Of a stretch of 61,780 nt of DNA, positions 2,546-32,862 are shown piece by piece. Source of the DNA: Bacilli bacterium. Its GTDB lineage: Bacteria > Bacillota_I > Bacilli_A > RFN20 > CAG-826. The notes below the pieces were generated by a model, which had not been told where the DNA came from, did not search any database, and was given only the letters and a program-made list of their open reading frames with translations. The position numbers and the translations under genes were made by a program. Numbering within the stretch: the first letter of the stretch is position 1; the number at the start of each line of letters is the position of its first letter. Location of the stretch: contig JAILBR010000043.1 in assembly GCA_024680795.1 (NCBI GenBank), forward strand, positions 1-61,780, read 5' to 3'.

Positions 2546-4229
2546 ATCCTTTCTCGATCAATAATTCGAATTCTTTAGCGGGAACTGGTTTAGAAAAATA
2601 ATATCCTTGGATAATATTGTAGCCCATACTTTGTAAGGCCACGACTTGTTCTCTAGTCTCCACACCTTCAGCGACAAGATTGACCTTTAAATATTTAGCG
2701 ATGTCGGCAACAATTCCTACCATCTTAAATGTCTTATCATTTTTAAACATTTCTTTGACGAACTTCATATCGAGTTTTAATACGTCAAATGGCAAAATTG
2801 AAATCGTATTCAATGATGAATACCCACTACCGAAGTCATCAATCTCAACAGTGAAGCCTTCTTCTTTAAATTTCTCAACAATCGCCACAGCTTGATCGAT
2901 TTCATTGTTATAAGCGGATTCAGTGATTTCTAAATATAAATCTTTTACACTGATACCGACTTCATCAATGATTTCACGAATGTGATTGACTAAGTTCTTA
3001 TCAAACATATCAATACGAGAGATGTTAACGGAAATAGGTATGGTATAACCATATTTCTCCTTCCATTTTTTCACCTGCATCGCGGCTTCTTTCCAAACGA
3101 ATCTATCCACTAAACGAATCGCCCCATTTTCTTCGAAAATAGGAATGAAAACGCCAGGGGAAATAAACCCTAATTCTGGATGGATCCATCTGATTAAAGC
3201 TTCCGCGCTAGAAAGAACGAATTTATTACCGGAGATATTGACCTTTGGTTGGTAATAAACTTGGAATTGTTTTTCTTCGATAGCTCGTTTAACTTCTCTA
3301 ACTAATCTCTCTTTGAATAATTGTTTCTTTTGGGCTTCTTGGTCAAAGATGTGATATTTTTCTTTGTTACTATTTCTAACTTCATCGCAAACTTGTTTAG
3401 CTAAATCGATTCGTTTATCAACAGATTCTTCTTTGCTATCAACTTGATAGATACCTAAATGGAATCTTAAATTGTTGACGTTATATTTCTCGATTAATTC
3501 TTTATCAATTTCACTCATCAATTCGCTGTAATTAGAGATACGATTCGTATATAAAACAAAGTATTCAGATCTTAATCGACCGACGATACCATTATGTTTT
3601 CTCACGATTTCTTTTAAGATATCCGCTAAAGAACGTAAAGCATAATCCCCAGCATCTCGACCATATAATTCGTTATATAGATTTAATTTATCTACACCGA
3701 CAACAACGACATCAGTCTCATCATCTGGGTGATATAAGTCAATCTTAGAAGCATATTCAATAAAGACATGCTTATTATATGTATCAGTTAATTCATCTCT
3801 TTCTGCTGCTTGAATAATCATTCTATCTTCACTTAATTCAATAGAACGACGAACACGGGCAATAACTACTTCTGGTAAATCATATGGTTTAGTAATAAAG
3901 TCTGCTGCACCTAATTCAAGCGCATCTAATTCACTTTGTTTTTCACTAGTTAAAACAATAACTGGAATTCTTTTATATTTTTCATCAGCTTTAATAATCT
4001 TCAAGAATTCTAAACCGCCCATCACCGGCATATTGATATCTAAAAGAATTAATGAAATAGGGGTTAATGCGGTTTTAACAACATCTAAAGCTTCTTTACC
4101 ATTTTCTGCGGTTAACAATTCATAACTATCAGATAAGATTTCAGATAAGATTTCTGTATTAATAAATTCATCTTCAACGATTAAAATCGTTCTTCTGATT
4201 TGTCTAATGATGTTGTTGTTTTTGCTCAT
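2535..4229 (-). CDS. REC-GGDEF(degenerate)-EAL response regulator, probable c-di-GMP phosphodiesterase
   Basis: REC (ILIVEDE, LLDINMP), degenerate GGDEF (GRLRSEYF), intact EAL motifs (AEALIRW, DDFGSGYSSL, KLD, AEGVET, QGYYFSKP). Confidence 0.93.
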   Translation of the reverse strand: MSKNNNIIRQIRRTILIVEDEFINTEILSEILSDSYELLTAENGKEALDVVKTALTPISLILLDINMPVMGGLEFLKIIKADEKYKRIPVIVLTSEKQSELDALELGAADFITKPYDLPEVVIARVRRSIELSEDRMIIQAAERDELTDTYNKHVFIEYASKIDLYHPDDETDVVVVGVDKLNLYNELYGRDAGDYALRSLADILKEIVRKHNGIVGRLRSEYFVLYTNRISNYSELMSEIDKELIEKYNVNNLRFHLGIYQVDSKEESVDKRIDLAKQVCDEVRNSNKEKYHIFDQEAQKKQLFKERLVREVKRAIEEKQFQVYYQPKVNISGNKFVLSSAEALIRWIHPELGFISPGVFIPIFEENGAIRLVDRFVWKEAAMQVKKWKEKYGYTIPISVNISRIDMFDKNLVNHIREIIDEVGISVKDLYLEITESAYNNEIDQAVAIVEKFKEEGFTVEIDDFGSGYSSLNTISILPFDVLKLDMKFVKEMFKNDKTFKMVGIVADIAKYLKVNLVAEGVETREQVVALQSMGYNIIQGYYFSKPVPAKEFELLIEKGFGK

Positions 4230-4392
4230 GATAATATCCTTTAGATTAATAGTGAGGGTGATAAAATACCGATTTAACTTGATATATACGCATTATATCT
4301 ATTTTAGTTAACTAAATTAGTATAAAACTTATTTGCACGCGTGACAAATAACTTGTGAAATATATTAGTGATTTTTTTATAAAAATTTGAGG

Positions 4393-4446
4393 GTGACATA
4401 CTCCCACCACTTATAAAAGTGGGGGCTTCTTGCAAGTTATGTTAAA
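4393..4446. mobile_element. Isolated IS200/IS605-type terminal hairpin remnant
   Basis: gtgacatactcccaccacttataaaagtgggggcttcttg forms a CCACTT-ATAA-AAGTGG hairpin and resembles IS200/IS605/IS1341 end sequences of Firmicutes (recognition from memory); no transposase adjacent. Confidence 0.5.
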
Positions 4447-4569
4447 TATAACCATTTAAGCATTTAGAAAAATTATCGATTCAAATATTCATCTTTTTGT
4501 TTAACTAACAAAAGGTTTTGTTGTGAGACAAAGTGTATTGGTGTAAAATGCAAGCACAGATCAAAGAAT

Positions 4570-26473: not shown

Positions 26474-27118
26474 CTATTTATTTTTATGTAAAACATTCTT
26501 TGCTATAACTAATACCTCTATTTTCTTTGGTTTTCCTGTCATAACTAAGTTAATAGCAGCGTTCATACTAGAACCAGTTGTATAGACATCATCAACTATT
26601 AAAATTTTCTTGTTATTTACAGCGTCTAGATCAGTAATTGTGAAGTTTTTTTGAGATGATATTCTTTGCTTTCTGGTCTGTTTAGCCTGCTTATGATTTT
26701 CTACTTTTTTCAGGATGTTCAGCACAGGAAGATTTAACCCACTATAAATCTCAACAACATGATTGAATCCTCTCTTCTTATCATCTAATTCAAATGAGGG
26801 AACCGGAACTATGTAATATCCTCTATATTTGATTCTTAAAAACCATAAGTATCTCGCTAAAAACACATCCTTAAGTTCAATGTCATAACATCCCTTAAAC
26901 TTAAATAATAGCTCTTTTATCGTTTGATCATACTCATATATCGCCATGCCTTTGATGTCTCTAACATGAAAATGTATAAATCGTGGATTAAACTTAGAAA
27001 AGCACTCTTCACATAATACATTCTCTCCGTCAATTAAGTTATGAAATGAGTTATCTTTAATCTCTTGGAAGCATATCTTGCAATGCTTTATTGGACTTGA
27101 TAATACTAGCACGTGCAT
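26474..27118 (-). CDS. comFC: ComF family (ComFC) phosphoribosyltransferase-like competence protein
   Basis: CKIC...CEEC zinc finger, RGFNHV, ILIVDDVYTTGSS. Confidence 0.9.
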   Translation of the reverse strand: MHVLVLSSPIKHCKICFQEIKDNSFHNLIDGENVLCEECFSKFNPRFIHFHVRDIKGMAIYEYDQTIKELLFKFKGCYDIELKDVFLARYLWFLRIKYRGYYIVPVPSFELDDKKRGFNHVVEIYSGLNLPVLNILKKVENHKQAKQTRKQRISSQKNFTITDLDAVNNKKILIVDDVYTTGSSMNAAINLVMTGKPKKIEVLVIAKNVLHKNK

Positions 27119-28220
27119 CCTCCATTTCTTTGGTTATTTTTTTAGCAATAAAGACCACATCACCGTGTGGATCATCTATCTTTCTTCCTGCTCTTCCAGC
27201 TATCTGAACGAGTGTACCTTTATCGTATATTTTGTTGTCTGAATTAAAGACAATGACATCAGACTCTTTTATGGTTACTCCTCGCTCTAAAACCGAAGTT
27301 GTTACTAAAAATTTCCATGTTTTGCACCTAAATTCATGAATTACGCTATTTCTTCCATCTCTTTTCGAATGAACGTAATTGCCATGTTTAAATAGCATTG
27401 ATAGAATTTTATATAGCGATTCACATTCGCTAATTGTTGGAGTAAAAACAAAAGCTTGTCTATTTCTTCTTAATATATTTTTAAGCGTAATATATAGATG
27501 ATAGTATCTTGATATCAAATGGCCTATTTTAAAAATCGGGACCGGTAATGGATGTCCATGAAATCTTGTGTTTAGTGACAAGATATCTTTTCCAGCTTGT
27601 TTAAATAAATTAATCACTTCCTCACTTGGTGTTGCAGACATTAAAATATAGTGCCCATTTAAAGAATTAAAGAAAATGTTTTTCAACACTTCATTATCTT
27701 TGAAAGGGAAAGCATCTATTTCATCTAGCACAATTAGGGCAAAATATTTTTTGTATCGATATAATTGGTGTGTGGTTAAAACAACAAGGTCTGCTTCTAC
27801 TTCATCATGGTGCCCACCATAGACAGATATTACAGTGTTTTTAATGAATATTTCTTTTAACCTATTTGTTAGTTCTATAACAACATCTCTTCTAGGTACT
27901 GCGAATGCCACTTTGTCGCCACAATTAATCGCGTATTTAATAACATTTAGCGATATTTCTGTTTTGCCAGATCCACACACGGCAAAAACTAAACTATCTA
28001 TGCCTTTCTTATAGTTCTCAACTAACTTATTCGATAATTCTTTTTGCTCTGGAGATAATTCATACTCGAGATGAATAGGCGCTTTTTTAGGGTATGAAGG
28101 TTTATGTTCTACTTCTTCGCCTCGAAAAGAGATACACCTACGACAATAGGGTTTACCGTTGAGATATCCTATAGAATGTATATCAGTATTACCACATATT
28201 GGGCATTTATAAGTTTCTAT
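27057..28220 (-). CDS. comFA: Competence DEAD/DEAH helicase ComFA
   Basis: CPICG...CRRC, AVCGSGKTE, DEIDAFP, MSATP, TTSVLERGVT, QIAGRAGR; start appears to be ATA at 28220 behind an AAGGAG RBS. Confidence 0.9.
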   Translation of the reverse strand: METYKCPICGNTDIHSIGYLNGKPYCRRCISFRGEEVEHKPSYPKKAPIHLEYELSPEQKELSNKLVENYKKGIDSLVFAVCGSGKTEISLNVIKYAINCGDKVAFAVPRRDVVIELTNRLKEIFIKNTVISVYGGHHDEVEADLVVLTTHQLYRYKKYFALIVLDEIDAFPFKDNEVLKNIFFNSLNGHYILMSATPSEEVINLFKQAGKDILSLNTRFHGHPLPVPIFKIGHLISRYYHLYITLKNILRRNRQAFVFTPTISECESLYKILSMLFKHGNYVHSKRDGRNSVIHEFRCKTWKFLVTTSVLERGVTIKESDVIVFNSDNKIYDKGTLVQIAGRAGRKIDDPHGDVVFIAKKITKEMEDARASIIKSNKALQDMLPRD

Positions 28221-28296
28221 ATTGCAACATCTCCTTTCTTTTGATTTAATATTTGTAGTGAGCAAGCACATAGGGGCTGTAAAAGGCGCGTGTAGC

Positions 28297-28656
28297 TCAT
28301 TTTTTCTTTTGTATCTTTTTTACCTTTTTTCTGTCATCTTTATGCACTCTAAATTGTTCATAAGGATAAGGGTGTTTAAAATTCTCATACTTAACTATTT
28401 GTGGCTGCGTAATCACAAAGCTTTTTGCACCTGTGTTTTCTAATGCTGGATCAATTTGATGCAGTAATAATTCTCTATGCCTACCATCGGAATCAGTAAA
28501 ACGAACAATCCAATACTTATTTTTCTTAGTGTTCTTTTTGTATAACCTTGAATAATGCCCACCACTTGAATCCATTATTCTATAGAATTTGCCTTTAATA
28601 AGAGGCTTTTTAAATCTTCTTTCATATGTTGATTTACGCTTTTTCTTTTTACTCAT
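28297..28656 (-). CDS. Small basic protein, PemK/MazF-like fold suspected (paralog A)
   Basis: AAGGAGG RBS; 119 aa; homologous to 29019-29342 (FY...D..GGH...LYKK..KKN.Y..V.FT.S.G...L.H.I.P...SFV..P). Confidence 0.75.
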   Translation of the reverse strand: MSKKKKRKSTYERRFKKPLIKGKFYRIMDSSGGHYSRLYKKNTKKNKYWIVRFTDSDGRHRELLLHQIDPALENTGAKSFVITQPQIVKYENFKHPYPYEQFRVHKDDRKKVKKIQKKK

Positions 28657-28671
28657 ATTTCCTCCTTTATG

Positions 28672-28944
28672 TTATGGATTTGTTGTCTTCGGGGATCCGC
28701 ATACGGCAAAAACCAAGCTATCAATACATTTCTTATAGTTTTCAACAAGTTTATTTGATAGTTTTTTTTGCTCAGGAGAGAGTTCATATTCTAGGTGAAT
28801 AGGCGCTTTCTTGGGATAAGAAGGTTTGTGTTCAAATTCTTCACCTTTAAAAGAAATGCATTTTCGGCAATATTGTTTGCCATTCAGCATTCCGATTGAA
28901 TGGATATCTGTGTTACCACAAATAGGACATTTATAAGTTTCTAT
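28672..28944 (-). pseudogene. comFA: Truncated alternative 5' copy of comFA (84 aa homologous, breaks at Walker A)
   Basis: 77/84 aa identical to the full copy with many synonymous differences; AVCGS|PKTTNP* instead of AVCGS|GKTE. Confidence 0.9.
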
Positions 28945-29018
28945 ATTGCATTGCCTCCTTTATTTTGGTTTAATATATCTAGTGATTCGCAGGTGAGATC
29001 CATTGTTGGTCTGGTGAA

Positions 29019-29342
29019 TCATTTTTTTCTTTTTATAGACTCAATAAGTGGTTTATCTTCTTTGTTTATTTTTATGCCTTCTAATGGCCTACTGCCAAGA
29101 TCTCTTCTTTTGCTTTTCGAAGGCGTATTGTGAACAAACGACACTTTAACTTTAATTGGTTCTATGCTGTGCTTTAATTTAATTCTTTTAGGGCCTGGCG
29201 ATGATGTAAACACAATAACAAAATAACTGTTTTTCTTGTCACTCTTCTTATAAAGAAGAGCTGGATGTCCACCATGTCCATCACTATGTATATAAAATCT
29301 TCTTCTTTCTAAATGTTTGTTATAAATCTTTTTCTTGCTCAT
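29019..29342 (-). CDS. Small basic protein, PemK/MazF-like fold suspected (paralog B)
   Basis: AAGGAG RBS; 107 aa; GHPALLY...YFVIVFTSS...SFV pattern resembles the PemK/MazF RP.LV...VVPITS...S.I core. Confidence 0.75.
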   Translation of the reverse strand: MSKKKIYNKHLERRRFYIHSDGHGGHPALLYKKSDKKNSYFVIVFTSSPGPKRIKLKHSIEPIKVKVSFVHNTPSKSKRRDLGSRPLEGIKINKEDKPLIESIKRKK

Positions 29343-29549
29343 GATTTCTCCTTTCTTGTTTGTGTTTAGTCATCTGAATTTTTATCTCTCATTAAACTAA
29401 TAGTGATTTTTTTCGTTTTTATGACCAAAAAAATTAATATTTTGTTAAATATTGTTGCGTTGCTGATGTTATATAAATCAGAGATTTATATTCAAAAAAA
29501 ACAAAAAAGTCACTTTAAAAGTGACAAAACCATAATCTATAATTAGGCG

Positions 29550-30974
29550 ATGAATTTTATTAAGAACATAATCCAAAAATTTGAACTTAAATGGAGCGAT
29601 TTGCTTTTAGCGGTTGGCTTTTTGTTTTCAAGCGTTTTTTATGCATTCTCATGGCAATTCATGGTCAATAGCAATCCAAACGATCTATTCCTTAAACCAT
29701 GGATGATTATCATAAGTTTTATAATCGTTTTTTCGTGTTGGGGTGGCTATTTATTTCTCGAACATAGAGCAAATAATCTTCCAAAACCTTACATATCCGG
29801 CCTATTTTTCTTTGTAGCCATATGGAGCGTGATATCAATTCTCATTCAACCATCGCAAGTAATTGAAGAAGTTGTGATGCGTGTTGTCAATGACACAAAC
29901 TCGGTAGCTTATCCTGGGCATAGTGTTGGTGATATCATTACTATCACCTTACAATTATCTCCGGTTCATAAGATGTTTTTCGCTATGGCGGCTTTCGTTA
30001 TAGTCGAGGTTTTTTATATTACATTCTTTGTGCTCCCAAAAAGATTTAAAAATTTAAACTTCCTCATCCTTGTTGGATGTGTGACATTCGCGTTCTTGTT
30101 TATCATGGTTGGATATAGTTATGTAACCGAATGGGATCACTATATACCATTCTTAAAAGCATTATTCGGTGACGGAACTATAGAAGATGTATATGAGAAC
30201 GCTGTATGTAGTTTTATCGTTCATAGAGTTCCATATGGAGTTTGCATGATGATGGGTTTAACATTCACAATTGTTGTTCATTCTATACATCAAAAATGGT
30301 ATTGGTATTTATTAACTGTATTCTTCTATATAAATATGGTTTTCTCATATTGTAAGACAGCTTTAATCATTTCAGCACTTATCGTTGTGGCATATGTCGT
30401 ATTCAGACTGATTTATACTTATAAAGAGTATAGAAAAAGAAACAAGATATTATTAATATCTTTTGGTTCATTATTTGGCTTATTCATCCTTTTGGTTGGA
30501 GTCAGTTATATAAGTAAAGGCACAATTCTTTCACCTATCTATAAAATGATTACTTCCGTTACAGGAACTAACACCATCGATACAAGAAGTTATATTTGGG
30601 ATAATGAATATCAATTACTAAGAAATGGTTGGTGGATTATCGGAAGAGGCTTTGGAACTTTTAACGAAGTGTTATATGTTATGAATATTGTTAATGGCGA
30701 CCCAGTAGCACCATCACACTCTTCTTATAATGCAATGTTAGGATATGGCGGCATTGTCTACTTACTTGGATTTATAGCCATAATTGTATATGCGGCTTAT
30801 ATGGTCATTAAGTGTTATAAAAAAGACCCAGCTCGTACATTCGGTTTTGCCATATGTGTTGCAGGATATCTTCTCTATGCTTTTACAGAAGGAGTTCACC
30901 ACTTACTATTAACGTTTGTGATTCCAATCTGCATCTTAAATCAAATCTTAAATGGTAATGAAAATAAGCAATAA
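29550..30974 (+). CDS. Polytopic membrane protein, O-antigen ligase/Wzy-like
   Basis: ~12 TM segments; TIDTRSYIW, WIIGRGFG, PSHSSYNAMLGYGGIV. Confidence 0.7.
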   Translation: MNFIKNIIQKFELKWSDLLLAVGFLFSSVFYAFSWQFMVNSNPNDLFLKPWMIIISFIIVFSCWGGYLFLEHRANNLPKPYISGLFFFVAIWSVISILIQPSQVIEEVVMRVVNDTNSVAYPGHSVGDIITITLQLSPVHKMFFAMAAFVIVEVFYITFFVLPKRFKNLNFLILVGCVTFAFLFIMVGYSYVTEWDHYIPFLKALFGDGTIEDVYENAVCSFIVHRVPYGVCMMMGLTFTIVVHSIHQKWYWYLLTVFFYINMVFSYCKTALIISALIVVAYVVFRLIYTYKEYRKRNKILLISFGSLFGLFILLVGVSYISKGTILSPIYKMITSVTGTNTIDTRSYIWDNEYQLLRNGWWIIGRGFGTFNEVLYVMNIVNGDPVAPSHSSYNAMLGYGGIVYLLGFIAIIVYAAYMVIKCYKKDPARTFGFAICVAGYLLYAFTEGVHHLLLTFVIPICILNQILNGNENKQ

Positions 30975-30989
30975 CGCGACAGGGATTGC

Positions 30990-32021
30990 TTATTTTTCTT
31001 CTTGAGCAGAAATAATATCCACTCTAGTAGCATGCCTTCCACCAGCAAATTCTGTGCTTAAAAAGATATCTACTCTTCTTAGAACGTCTTCAAGTTTCAT
31101 GAACTTTTGTCCAAAACTAATGACGTTTGCGTTATTATGCTCTCTCATAAGTCTAGCTACATCATCGTTATAAGCGATTCCGCATCTCACACCTTTGACT
31201 TTGTTGGCCGCTATAGCGATTCCTTCGCCACTAGTGCATACTAAAACGCCAAAATCACATTCTTTAGAAGCGACTTTTTCTCCAACAGCGATGCCAAAGG
31301 TTGGATAATGACAAGAATCATGATTAAATGTGCCAACATCCACTACTTGGTGGCCTGATTTTTCTAAATGTTCTTTGATTGCGTTCTTATATTCAAGTCC
31401 GCCATGATCACATCCAACTGCAATTTTCATAATTCTTACACTCCTTTTAATATCTTCTAAAGAAATAGGTCCTTCTCTTATTATCTTAACATCATCGTTT
31501 GTGAGGTCAATTATTGTCGAAGGCTTTGCTCCTAAAGCATTTTCTTTATAAATATATCCTAATTCATTTCCAAATTCTTTTTCCACTTCTTGATAGGATA
31601 TGAATGGTTTTTCTCCTGACCTATTTGCACTTGGAACTAATAGAGGTTTTTCTAAATATTCGAGCAAATCTCTAATATTTTTCATGTTTGGCACTCTAAT
31701 TCCAATAATTCCTGTATTGTGAGTAACATAACTTGGAACACTAGATTTTGCTCTTAATAGCACTGTTATTGGGCCAGGCATAAAGACATTAATGATTTGT
31801 CTATCTCTTAAAGTTAGATAAGCATATTTATCTATCTCTTCTTTATTGCTCACCATTAATGTATATGGTTTATCTTCTGGCCTTCTTTTAATATCATTGA
31901 GAAGGTTATATGCCTTTTCATCATCAAAATAAACACCTAATCCCATCACTGTTTCCGTTGGGAAAGCGATAACTTTAGATTTTTCTAATGCTTTTTTAGC
32001 TAACTCAAACTCGCTAGGCAT
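30990..32021 (-). CDS. tsaC-rpiB: In-frame fusion of threonylcarbamoyl-AMP synthase (TsaC/Sua5) and ribose-5-phosphate isomerase B
   Basis: FPTETVMGLG, KRRPEDKP, PGPIT, PSANRSG then without a stop MKIAVGCDHGG, CTSGEG, HNNANV, FAGGRHATRV; internal AAGGAG RBS before ATG 31430. Confidence 0.9.
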   Translation of the reverse strand: MPSEFELAKKALEKSKVIAFPTETVMGLGVYFDDEKAYNLLNDIKRRPEDKPYTLMVSNKEEIDKYAYLTLRDRQIINVFMPGPITVLLRAKSSVPSYVTHNTGIIGIRVPNMKNIRDLLEYLEKPLLVPSANRSGEKPFISYQEVEKEFGNELGYIYKENALGAKPSTIIDLTNDDVKIIREGPISLEDIKRSVRIMKIAVGCDHGGLEYKNAIKEHLEKSGHQVVDVGTFNHDSCHYPTFGIAVGEKVASKECDFGVLVCTSGEGIAIAANKVKGVRCGIAYNDDVARLMREHNNANVISFGQKFMKLEDVLRRVDIFLSTEFAGGRHATRVDIISAQEEK

Positions 32022-32862
32022 AATTATCAAATTCCTTCTTCTTTAAAATATATAGGAAACGAACCTTACCATACATATCTTTTTCAAAGTTATATCCAAC
32101 CCCTGGATATTCGTTTTCTAATAAATCAGTTAACTCTTCTTCCATATCTTCACCAATTTCAAAAGCAAGCAATGCTTCATCACTCATGTTTTTTAAGTTA
32201 GCAATCATCTCTTCATAATATTTGGTCTTTGGAGAAGCAAATAATGCAAGGTGTGGCTCATATTTAAGTGTTTGTTCGCTAACTGTTTCTGGTCCACCGA
32301 TATATGGGGGGTTAGAAACAATGACATCTAGCTTTTCTTTTATTGGAGAAAGCATATCACCACATCTAAAATCAATATCAACGTTATGAAGCTTCGCATT
32401 CTTCTTTGCAACTTCTAGAGCTTTTTCAGATATATCAGTAGCAATAATCTTTGCGGTTGGAAGGTTTTCTTTTAAATAGATAGCTAAAATTCCTGATCCA
32501 GTTCCAATGTCAGCGATTGATATATATGGATCTTTGCCAAAATGTTTAACAATATACACTAAAGCTCCAATAGCGAGTTGTTCTGTTTCTTGACGAGGAA
32601 TTAAAACATCGGGATTCACTATATAATTACTATTTATAAAATAGGTATAGCCTAAAACATATTGGAGAGGTTCTCCGTTCATAACTCTTTTAAGATTATC
32701 ATCTATTTTGTTTTCATTTTTTAGTTCATTGTCAAAATGAACAATAAGCTCAGTAAAATCATGAAAACCTCCATCATCGGTGAGGAGGGTTTTTACTACT
32801 GTGCTATTAACGTATTCGTTTTTTATTTTTTTAAGTTCAAAAAATTTTTGACGGTAAGTCAT
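32014..32862 (-). CDS. prmC: Release factor glutamine methyltransferase
   Basis: GEPLQY, VLIPRQETE, DIGTGSG, VSNPPYI; follows prfA. Confidence 0.95.
   Translation of the reverse strand: MTYRQKFFELKKIKNEYVNSTVVKTLLTDDGGFHDFTELIVHFDNELKNENKIDDNLKRVMNGEPLQYVLGYTYFINSNYIVNPDVLIPRQETEQLAIGALVYIVKHFGKDPYISIADIGTGSGILAIYLKENLPTAKIIATDISEKALEVAKKNAKLHNVDIDFRCGDMLSPIKEKLDVIVSNPPYIGGPETVSEQTLKYEPHLALFASPKTKYYEEMIANLKNMSDEALLAFEIGEDMEEELTDLLENEYPGVGYNFEKDMYGKVRFLYILKKKEFDNYA

Follow-up and report, generated by a model that had tools for sequence, protein, structure and literature searches.

In integrons, which work with an integrase (IntI) and the sites attI and attC, short, co-oriented and apparently promoterless single-gene cassettes are lined up at a fixed site, with the newest cassette apparently at the expressed end; the cargo varies between strains and toxin-type cargo is common. 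In the orphan tip/immunity arrays of polymorphic toxins (Rhs, CdiA, WapA) modules recombine via a conserved stretch and displace the earlier module without a dedicated recombinase, the displaced fragment keeps a piece of the conserved stretch, and the arrays record this history. Gene-restoring integrative elements, such as the islands in tRNA genes, use a conserved target gene, restore it with a copy of its end that the element carries, and have the end of the target directly repeated on both sides. Prophages with integrases disrupt the competence gene comFA in Streptococcus and Bacillus (PMC12378983). Here we describe an array of small cassettes at the 5′ end of comFA in a Bacilli bacterium (GTDB genus CAG-826). 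The array lies in a 61,780-nt stretch (contig JAILBR010000043.1, assembly GCA_024680795.1; below called the window) of a 1.33-Mb metagenome-assembled genome (MAG), G000. All sequences used in this work were metagenome assemblies.

Our main conclusion, to which we assign a probability of about 0.6, is that a new cassette comes to adjoin the body of comFA and supplies its working 5′ end, the locus being an exchangeable, recombinase-less stack. On the minus strand the genes follow in the order small gene B, truncated copy of the comFA 5′ end, small gene A, intact comFA, comFC and secA. The order of the first four of these, and the cut of the truncated copy at Walker A, had been proposed from the letters alone (the sequence-only reading), and were confirmed by the open reading frames (ORFs) and by a direct repeat. 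The repeat, found by a repeat search of the window, is 292 nt long (27970-28261 and 28694-28985), 79% identical and spaced by 724 nt. In the list of array features R is the comFA 5′ module and T the tail at the junction with the next gene; RBS stands for ribosome-binding site.

29343..29356, minus strand: T-like remnant with RBS, 5′ of B (…AAACACAAACAAGAAAGGAGAAATC); here the variable region has its left border, and here the 96% module shared with genome G015 begins
29019..29342, minus strand: small gene B, cargo type T1, 107 aa, very basic, predicted MazF/PemK-like fold (AF2 and Foldseek)
28975..29018, minus strand: spacer 3′ of B, with TGATTCAC … GCGAATCAC, kept in all T1 cassettes, those of distant lineages included
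28694..28974, minus strand: R1, the displaced comFA 5′ module, leader and codons 1-88, ending at GGATC (repeat and translation)
28657..28693, minus strand: T junction, where comFA codons 88-95 survive in degenerate form (GSPKTTNP and stop), then the RBS of A
28297..28656, minus strand: small gene A, cargo type T2, 119 aa, predicted MazF/PemK-like fold (AF2 and Foldseek)
28256..28693, minus strand: tract of T, A and spacer, recently exchanged with another species (comparison with contig L057)
27970..28250, minus strand: R2, the working comFA 5′ module, with leader and zinc ribbon CPxC…CxxC, through the GGATC of Walker A
27057..27969, minus strand: comFA body, the helicase core from Walker A onward (Pfam ResIII/DEAD/Helicase_C)
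26474..27118, minus strand: comFC, phosphoribosyltransferase-type, overlapping the end of comFA (Pfam Pribosyltran)

The intact ORF (28271-27057) encodes 404 aa with matches to Pfam ResIII, DEAD and Helicase_C. It has the N-terminal four-cysteine zinc ribbon (CPICG…CRRC, in R) and the helicase core of ComFA, and is followed by comFC, its downstream partner in the same operon. R1 and R2 encode 78 identical residues out of 85, with nonsynonymous divergence (pN) 0.064 and synonymous divergence (pS) 0.80; they are therefore mutually old and were retained under protein-level selection, in agreement with the earlier view that the two comFA starts are not a fresh duplication. R1 is closest to the intact 5′ end of the comFA of G015 (93.5% nucleotide identity); its ATA is preceded by an in-frame TAA, which leaves it without a canonical start codon.

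One unit of the array consists of a T tail (35 nt), one cargo gene, a spacer and an R copy. The units are co-oriented and stacked before the helicase core of comFA, the insert being 0.5-1.2 kb with a single gene. R comprises the comFA leader and 88 codons and ends with GG(A/T)TC. T is a crippled remnant of the Walker A codons: the Walker A glycine is altered (GSGKT to GSPKT), and an early stop precedes the RBS that serves the next gene. In G000 the truncated copy ends with AVCGS, continued by PKTTNP and a stop at 28672. The homology had been said to stop sharply at GGATC. A boundary does lie there, but past it the truncated copy retains a degenerate remnant of 20-25 nt of the next comFA codons (GGATC CCCGAAGACAACAAATCC versus GGATC TGGCAAAACAGAAATATC). 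The expected conservation of this junction was observed in all 15 truncated copies with a preserved 3′ end (11 loci, 10 species), each of which ended with GG(A/T)TC and carried the common T tail. The T-tail consensus is CCCAAAGACACGAAATCCATAACAGAAAGGAG, and its mean pairwise identity is 0.77 versus 0.59 for third codon positions of R. Candidate inverted-repeat cores at the junction, TTTGCC…GGCAAA in G000 and GGAT…ATCC in T, were discarded, as they are not conserved in other species. Deletion derivatives were found at microhomologies of 5-11 nt.

The spacers (37-75 nt) fall into at least five unrelated classes (e.g. 28975-29018 and 28251-28296 in the window, and those of loci L021, L033 and L036). 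In each class the bases after the cargo stop can pair with the bases before the R leader, which closes a stem. Compared with shuffled sequences, folding was strong for the T4 class (z -3.2) and ranged from -0.2 to -1.7 for the others; the closing stem of the T1 class is weak (z -1.6). No attC R/L-box consensus was seen in the spacers. The T1-class spacer contains GCGAATCA, which we take to resemble the streptococcal cin-box TACGAATA. In T5 and T6 cassettes (e.g. L033 (G016) 4178-4564; L035 (G006)) the cargo ORF reads through the R leader, ATTAAATCAAAA…AAAGAAAGG being translated as a Lys-rich C-terminus, and overlaps the comFA start codon. This overlap suggests translational coupling, as far as can be read from the ORFs.

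The junction GGATC contains GATC, the site of DpnII-family endonucleases. With 113 occurrences against 255 expected from a Markov model and 196 from base composition, GATC shows an about 2-fold depletion in the window, and an intact DpnII-family gene is present in G000 (contig C60, 2060-2908) and in five of its 22 genus relatives. We considered whether the cassettes are DpnII fragments joined by restriction and ligation. This is unlikely: the cassettes have internal GATC sites, and the enzyme is encoded in only 6 of 23 genomes.

The sequence-only reading expected variable cargo between comFA 5′ copies in relatives. These relatives are MAGs of uncultured rumen bacteria that carry the label Bacilli, Bacillales or Erysipelotrichaceae bacterium; with G000 included, the genus set comprised 23 genomes. 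They were searched with ComFA residues 1-89, and the sua5-comFA interval of matching genomes was retrieved and mapped. The ComFA N-terminal region gave one intact match each in 22 of 23 genomes; 13 also had truncated matches, up to five, which end at about residue 88 where the 3′ end is preserved, the distal copies being shorter fragments. Between sua5 and comFA 19 of 22 same-genus species carry 1-5 units, with cargo of at least nine sequence types of MazF-fold proteins, or a YhcG nuclease, and the order of units varies among species. The expectation thus held, and two empty sites, with comFA directly after sua5, were found as well (G004, G017). G012 retains only degenerate T5 cargo. The array system was detected in 17 of 22 genomes of the genus, with one weak match among 38 outside it. 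The arrays are given below, where T1 to T7 (with subtypes T1b and T2b) are types of small basic proteins and Rbody is R fused to the helicase core.

G000: T1-R-T2-Rbody
G001 (five units): T6rem-Rfrag-T3-R-T4-R(1-62)-R-T5-R-T1b-Rbody
G002: T1-R(1-59)-T1b-Rbody
G003: T6-Rfrag-T3rem-Rbody
G008: T1-R-T3-Rbody
G009: T2b-Rbody
G010: T4-R(1-24)-T2b-Rbody
G011, G014, G018: YhcG-Rbody
G013: T1-Rbody
G015: T3-R(1-74)-T1-Rbody
G016: T3-R-T6-Rbody
G022: T2rem-R-T7-Rfrag-T6-…-Rbody

comFA takes its working 5′ end from the R copy that adjoins the helicase core, and older R copies lie upstream, cut at the same point and decaying. In the five-unit array of G001 the R copies decay with distance from comFA, from pN 0.021 through 0.080 to frameshifts and stops and finally a fragment; this gradient fits newer units adjoining the comFA body. 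No recombinase ORF was found in about 30 arrays (the sua5-comFC interval of the 23 genus loci and six further contigs), where the ORFs were MazF-fold genes, YhcG, R fragments and, in G000, a membrane protein only. The statement of the sequence-only reading that no recombinase is present held for the sua5-comFC interval of the window, and the search for recombinase-carrying versions of the array found none.

The Rfam family cow-rumen-1 RNA (RF02946) had matches in the comFA cassette region of two genomes, at L025 (G022) 4202-4264 and L041 (G012) 98-160. Both are on the minus strand, opposite to comFA, and score 56 and 54 bits against a gathering threshold of 53.4. This RNA may be another kind of cargo. 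The Rfam scan of the array in the window returned nothing.

Judged from the assembled sequences, cassettes are gained, lost and replaced among strains and species. The block of B and R1 in G000 (29356-28694) is 96.4% identical over 663 bp to a module of G015, and the shared block ends at GGATC. The counterpart in G015 is B with the intact comFA 5′ end, and the flanks of the two genomes are just 70-71% identical. T1 has pS 0.032 against G015 and 0.62-0.87 against the other orthologues, which indicates recent transfer. The 254-nt coding part of R holds 15 of the 24 differences between G000 and G015, 13 of them within its last 135 nt; the youngest tract therefore ends near R nt 59.

Protein A is encoded identically on two other metagenome contigs, L057 and L058, in different array contexts. 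The L057 array is R-T-A-R-T-T7like-R-body, and its comFA body is only 68% identical to that of G000. Across T, A and the spacer the two differ by one mismatch in about 430 nt, whereas the flanking R copies are 78-87% identical; one end of the shared tract is GGATC, and its other end falls in the first few nt of the R repeat. On L058 the protein identity is 100% despite 10-17% synonymous change in part of the gene. Contig L061 comes from a conspecific strain, with 95% and 97.5% identity to G000 in the flanks and 99% in the ComFA body. The array that lies between these flanks reads T7-R-T1b-(gap)-R, the gap being a scaffold gap, versus T1-R-T2-R in G000. On the left, the match to G000 runs out at the RBS/ATG of the first cargo gene (up to about 13 nt past the ATG), and T7 follows. 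Of 274 nt of the working R of L061, 50 are unlike G000; the last of these lies 2 nt before GGATC, after which just two of the next 274 nt differ. Expressed as percentages, the comFA 5′ module diverges by about 21% up to this point, and past GGATC the identity is 99%. In L050, from a more distant lineage, a host-type R 3′ end, GGATC and T stand upstream of T1, and the R downstream of T1 is chimeric, with about 58 nt of cassette type followed by host type.

The 5′ module and the body of comFA have separate histories. In comparisons among the 19 species with arrays, identity is 92-97% across ComFA residues 16-90, versus 40-85% from residue 91 onward, and the latter is also the level found against G004, G017 and G012, whose 5′ ends are not of the conserved R type. 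Between G000 and its genus relatives the aa identity is 56-63% in the body versus 89-99% in the 5′ module. In the array-bearing species the 5′ part has median pS 0.655 and pN 0.053, and the 3′ part median pS 0.678 and pN 0.235. In the zinc-ribbon and Q-motif region pN is about 0.05 with cassettes versus 0.23-0.26 in G004, G017 and G012, a roughly 5-fold difference, with synonymous sites equally saturated; along the gene the rate changes exactly at the repeat boundary. A recent sweep of the 5′ module does not account for its 93% aa conservation, as pS of R is as saturated as pS of the body. By its pattern of substitution R is an old module under strong protein-level constraint, since pS is saturated as in the body while pN is low, with swaps superimposed. 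The comFA body is inherited with the host genome.

The predicted discordance between the two parts of comFA was found in both directions. For G018/G001 pS is 0.18 in the 3′ part and 0.62 in the 5′ part, for G014/G020 it is 0.62 and 0.22, and for G013/G009 0.68 and 0.33. The nucleotide switch lies within about 10 nt of the GG(A/T)TC of Walker A in three comparisons of intact copies, G001/G018, G014/G020 and G008b/G020. The position of G000 also differs: in the body tree it stands beside the cassette-free G017, near G004, with weak support (47-72%), and its N-terminus is almost identical to that of G001. In the R tree copies of the same genome never cluster, which rules out within-genome concerted evolution or gene conversion. 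The link between R and the type of cargo that precedes it is not strict. Some R copies, e.g. G008b/G020, are mosaic.

Structure prediction gave confident models of both cargo proteins of G000 (AF2 pLDDT 91 for B and 89 for A). In Foldseek the top ~30 PDB matches of B were all MazF, and A matched S. aureus MazF (4mzp, E 5e-4, TM 0.5). The top PDB matches of the pair were MazF of S. aureus, M. tuberculosis, B. subtilis and E. coli (probability 1.00, TM 0.5-0.58), with CptN and CcdB lower in the lists. On these models the fold of A and B is of the MazF/PemK type, which refines their earlier description as accessory genes. The two proteins are paralogous (36% identity, E 2e-16), as the sequence-only reading had noted. 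B has 208 homologues and belongs to no Pfam family. Neither protein had a match in Pfam (PF02452 included), PHROG or PADLOC, and the sequence-profile search of the PDB found no MazF; a profile search of 1.84 billion representatives yielded only 108 clusters. The cargo genes are under purifying selection, with pN 0.11 and pS 0.70 among T1 orthologues and an unchanged protein A on L058. The GGHPxLLY and vvFTSS motifs of the cargo presumably occupy the positions of MazF GxRPxLVI and v.PiTs, which would put His where the catalytic Arg is expected. According to the ORF lists of the arrays there is no antitoxin gene beside the cargo, the neighbours being R fragments and short spacers only. With the type II toxins MazF, PemK and Kid the cargo proteins share the size (100-140 aa) and the fold of a beta-barrel with a C-terminal helix (Foldseek TM 0.5-0.58) and, presumably, the motif order. 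They differ from them in having no PF02452 or PADLOC match, no antitoxin gene and very Lys-rich tails, and in lying always upstream of comFA. The cargo of G011, G014 and G018 is a 330-aa YhcG/DUF1016 nuclease of the PD-(D/E)xK type (Pfam E 5e-52).

Some further features of the G000 locus concern the expression of comFA and the flanking genes. Neither a terminator nor a promoter excess was detected in the interior of the array. In each comFA 5′ copy (28218-28250 and 28942-28974, minus strand) ATA stands in place of the ATG of relatives (NIETYKCPICG versus MESYKCPICG), and the ATA at 28220-28218 is the probable start codon of R2. An in-frame ATG lies upstream in the intact copy, at 28271, where the truncated copy has an in-frame TAA. 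In both copies a short out-of-frame ORF (ATG…TAA; MLQYRNL or MQYRNL, then stop) overlaps the ATA position. Between sua5 and the array, on the opposite strand (29550-30974, plus), lies a gene for a 474-aa polytopic membrane protein of no Pfam family; it is present in G000 and on the conspecific contigs L059 and L061, and absent from all 22 other species. At 30990-32030 G000 encodes a Sua5/TsaC-RpiB fusion of 346 aa, which in many relatives appears as two separate ORFs (tblastn matches in two frames or segments). An exact-protein look-up of ComFA and ComFC of G000 returned no record.

As to how the cassettes move, we lean slightly towards RecA-dependent recombination in the R repeats and the T/RBS block, acting on DNA brought in by natural transformation. 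The genes at hand would allow this: ComEC, DprA, ComFA and ComFC are present. Movement would need no cassette-borne enzyme. The portable homology would be provided by the protein-conserved R repeats (~280 nt) and the short T/RBS block, through which RecA could act on the imported DNA. The exchanged tract would stop at GGATC because similarity ends there, T differing from Walker A and the foreign body being about 70% identical. Arrays could grow by unequal, sister-bridging exchange, and shrink by deletion between R copies or at microhomologies. Merodiploid formation by exchange of the sister-bridging type has reportedly been seen in pneumococcal transformation. The cargo is probably co-transcribed with comFA-comFC, and hence made alongside the DNA-uptake machine. 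The RecA reading accounts for the mosaicism of R, its reshuffling relative to cargo, the chimeric copy in L050, the deletions at microhomologies and the confinement to essentially one genus, which is expected if spread depends on homology.

Several observations weigh against movement by RecA alone. An array could go from one unit to two only by an unequal exchange, and none was observed in the arrays compared; natural transformation is not known to occur in these uncultured organisms. All resolvable junctions between cassette and host lie within about 10 nt of GG(A/T)TC and none in the interior of R, in five independent comparisons (G001/G018, G014/G020, G008b/G020, G000/L061 and L050) and in the 15 truncated copies. 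The right-hand breakpoints of three different microhomology deletions are also no more than 12 nt from GGATC. At either end, the stretch in common with L057 stops about 8 nt or less from the repeat edge, without the run of 20-30 nt into the arms that simple arm-mediated exchange predicts, and T (0.77) is more conserved than synonymous sites (0.59), like a functional site. The clustering of junctions and deletions, the limits of the L057 tract and the conservation of T favour an integron-like process, in which a recombinase or nuclease encoded elsewhere, or a hijacked host enzyme, recognises the R end, GGATC and T or Walker A, and circular cassettes are inserted at, and excised from, the Walker A codons of comFA. 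The stretch shared with L057 has GGATC and the 3′ foot of the spacer stem as its near-exact limits, T still resembles the flank of Walker A, and a secondary joint occurs in G002 and G007 at the look-alike GTATGTGG of the first zinc knuckle. The resident DpnII-family enzyme of G000 and five relatives could also cut at the junction GATC and seed insertions or deletions. We nevertheless regard a site-specific process as doubtful. About 30 arrays have no recombinase in or beside them, the junction has no conserved inverted-repeat core, R copies are mosaic and some tracts end inside R (G000/G015, near R nt 59), and the end of homology at GGATC accounts for the position of the junction without a special enzyme. 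The DpnII gene is found in 6 of 23 genomes only, and cassettes contain internal GATC.

A single old tandem duplication of a small gene with the comFA 5′ end, inherited vertically and altered by unequal crossing-over only, without transfer between lineages, is very improbable. The single T tail at all junctions does suggest one founding event, all MazF-fold cargo types are mutually distant homologues, and T1 is found upstream of comFA even in the more distant L050 and L053. Such a history is, however, at odds with a 96% module in a 70% background and a 99.8% tract in a 68% background, with unrelated arrays in conspecific strains and a cassette order that varies among species, and with the non-homologous YhcG in the same frame. 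Nor does it fit the discordance of comFA 5′ and 3′ parts in both directions, the pN/pS of 0.08 between the R copies of G000, unlike neutral drift of one copy, or the uneven divergence (R 79% at the nucleotide level versus cargo 36% at the aa level) with relatives carrying other cargo. A plain old duplication is contradicted as the full explanation, and survives only as the origin of the first unit. It is also unlikely that the association is functional, the ComFA zinc ribbon, as full-length protein or truncated peptide, neutralising or partnering the MazF-fold cargo. Such a role would suit toxin-fold cargo that has no antitoxin gene, the constraint on ComFA residues 16-90 in array-bearing species (in G004, G017 and G012 they evolve like the rest) and the intact ORFs of 87-93 aa that several displaced R copies keep directly before the next toxin-like gene. 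Yet one near-invariant domain would have to fit at least nine cargo types (<30-40% identical) and a YhcG nuclease, distal R copies decay, R1 of G000 has no start codon, and R is reshuffled relative to cargo type.

If cassettes adjoin and rebuild comFA as proposed, they would spread between species via the very DNA-uptake machine that they rebuild. If the arrays were built by ordinary recombination on a portable part of a housekeeping gene, integron-like arrays would be possible without an integrase, and competence would create and maintain an accessory-gene hotspot in its own gene, the opposite of elements that break competence genes. The constraint on the ComFA domain (~5-fold lower dN) would come from the need to fit many diverged helicase bodies, or from a role as partner or antidote of the cargo. 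The locus would offer a natural experiment, in which the rate of evolution of one protein domain is about five times lower where the domain belongs to a mobile module. The MazF-fold proteins would form a new, uncharacterised, antitoxin-less family wired to the DNA-uptake operon, and the decaying stack of 5′ ends could be read as a record of acquisition, useful for strain tracking in rumen metagenomes.

In our literature search no paper was found that joins comFA with MazF and tandem arrangement, or with cassette arrays that rebuild comFA. We tentatively suggest that the locus is an unrecognised cassette platform, in which the portable module is the first 88 codons of a competence gene, entry is at the P-loop codons and no recombinase of its own is carried. 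With integrons it shares the cassette traits described at the outset, from the short co-oriented single-gene units at a fixed site to the strain-variable, often toxin-type cargo and the newest cassette apparently at the expressed end. It differs in that the arrays have no IntI-type integrase and no recognisable attC or attI, what recurs between cassettes is coding sequence, a 280-nt copy of the target's 5′ end conserved at the protein level only, and the platform lies inside an essential competence gene that each cassette rebuilds. The likeness to the Rhs, CdiA and WapA arrays extends to the displacement of earlier modules through a conserved stretch, a piece of which stays with the displaced fragment, to the lack of a dedicated recombinase and to the recording of history. 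In the comFA arrays, however, the polarity is mirrored, the 5′ end being displaced upstream; the scaffold is not a toxin, there are no immunity genes, and the variable part is a separate upstream gene instead of a domain of the scaffold. As in gene-restoring elements the target is a conserved gene whose end is directly repeated on both sides: R copies flank each cargo and comFA stays intact. Unlike such elements the comFA inserts encode no integrase, measure 0.5-1.2 kb, hold a single gene and are iterated.

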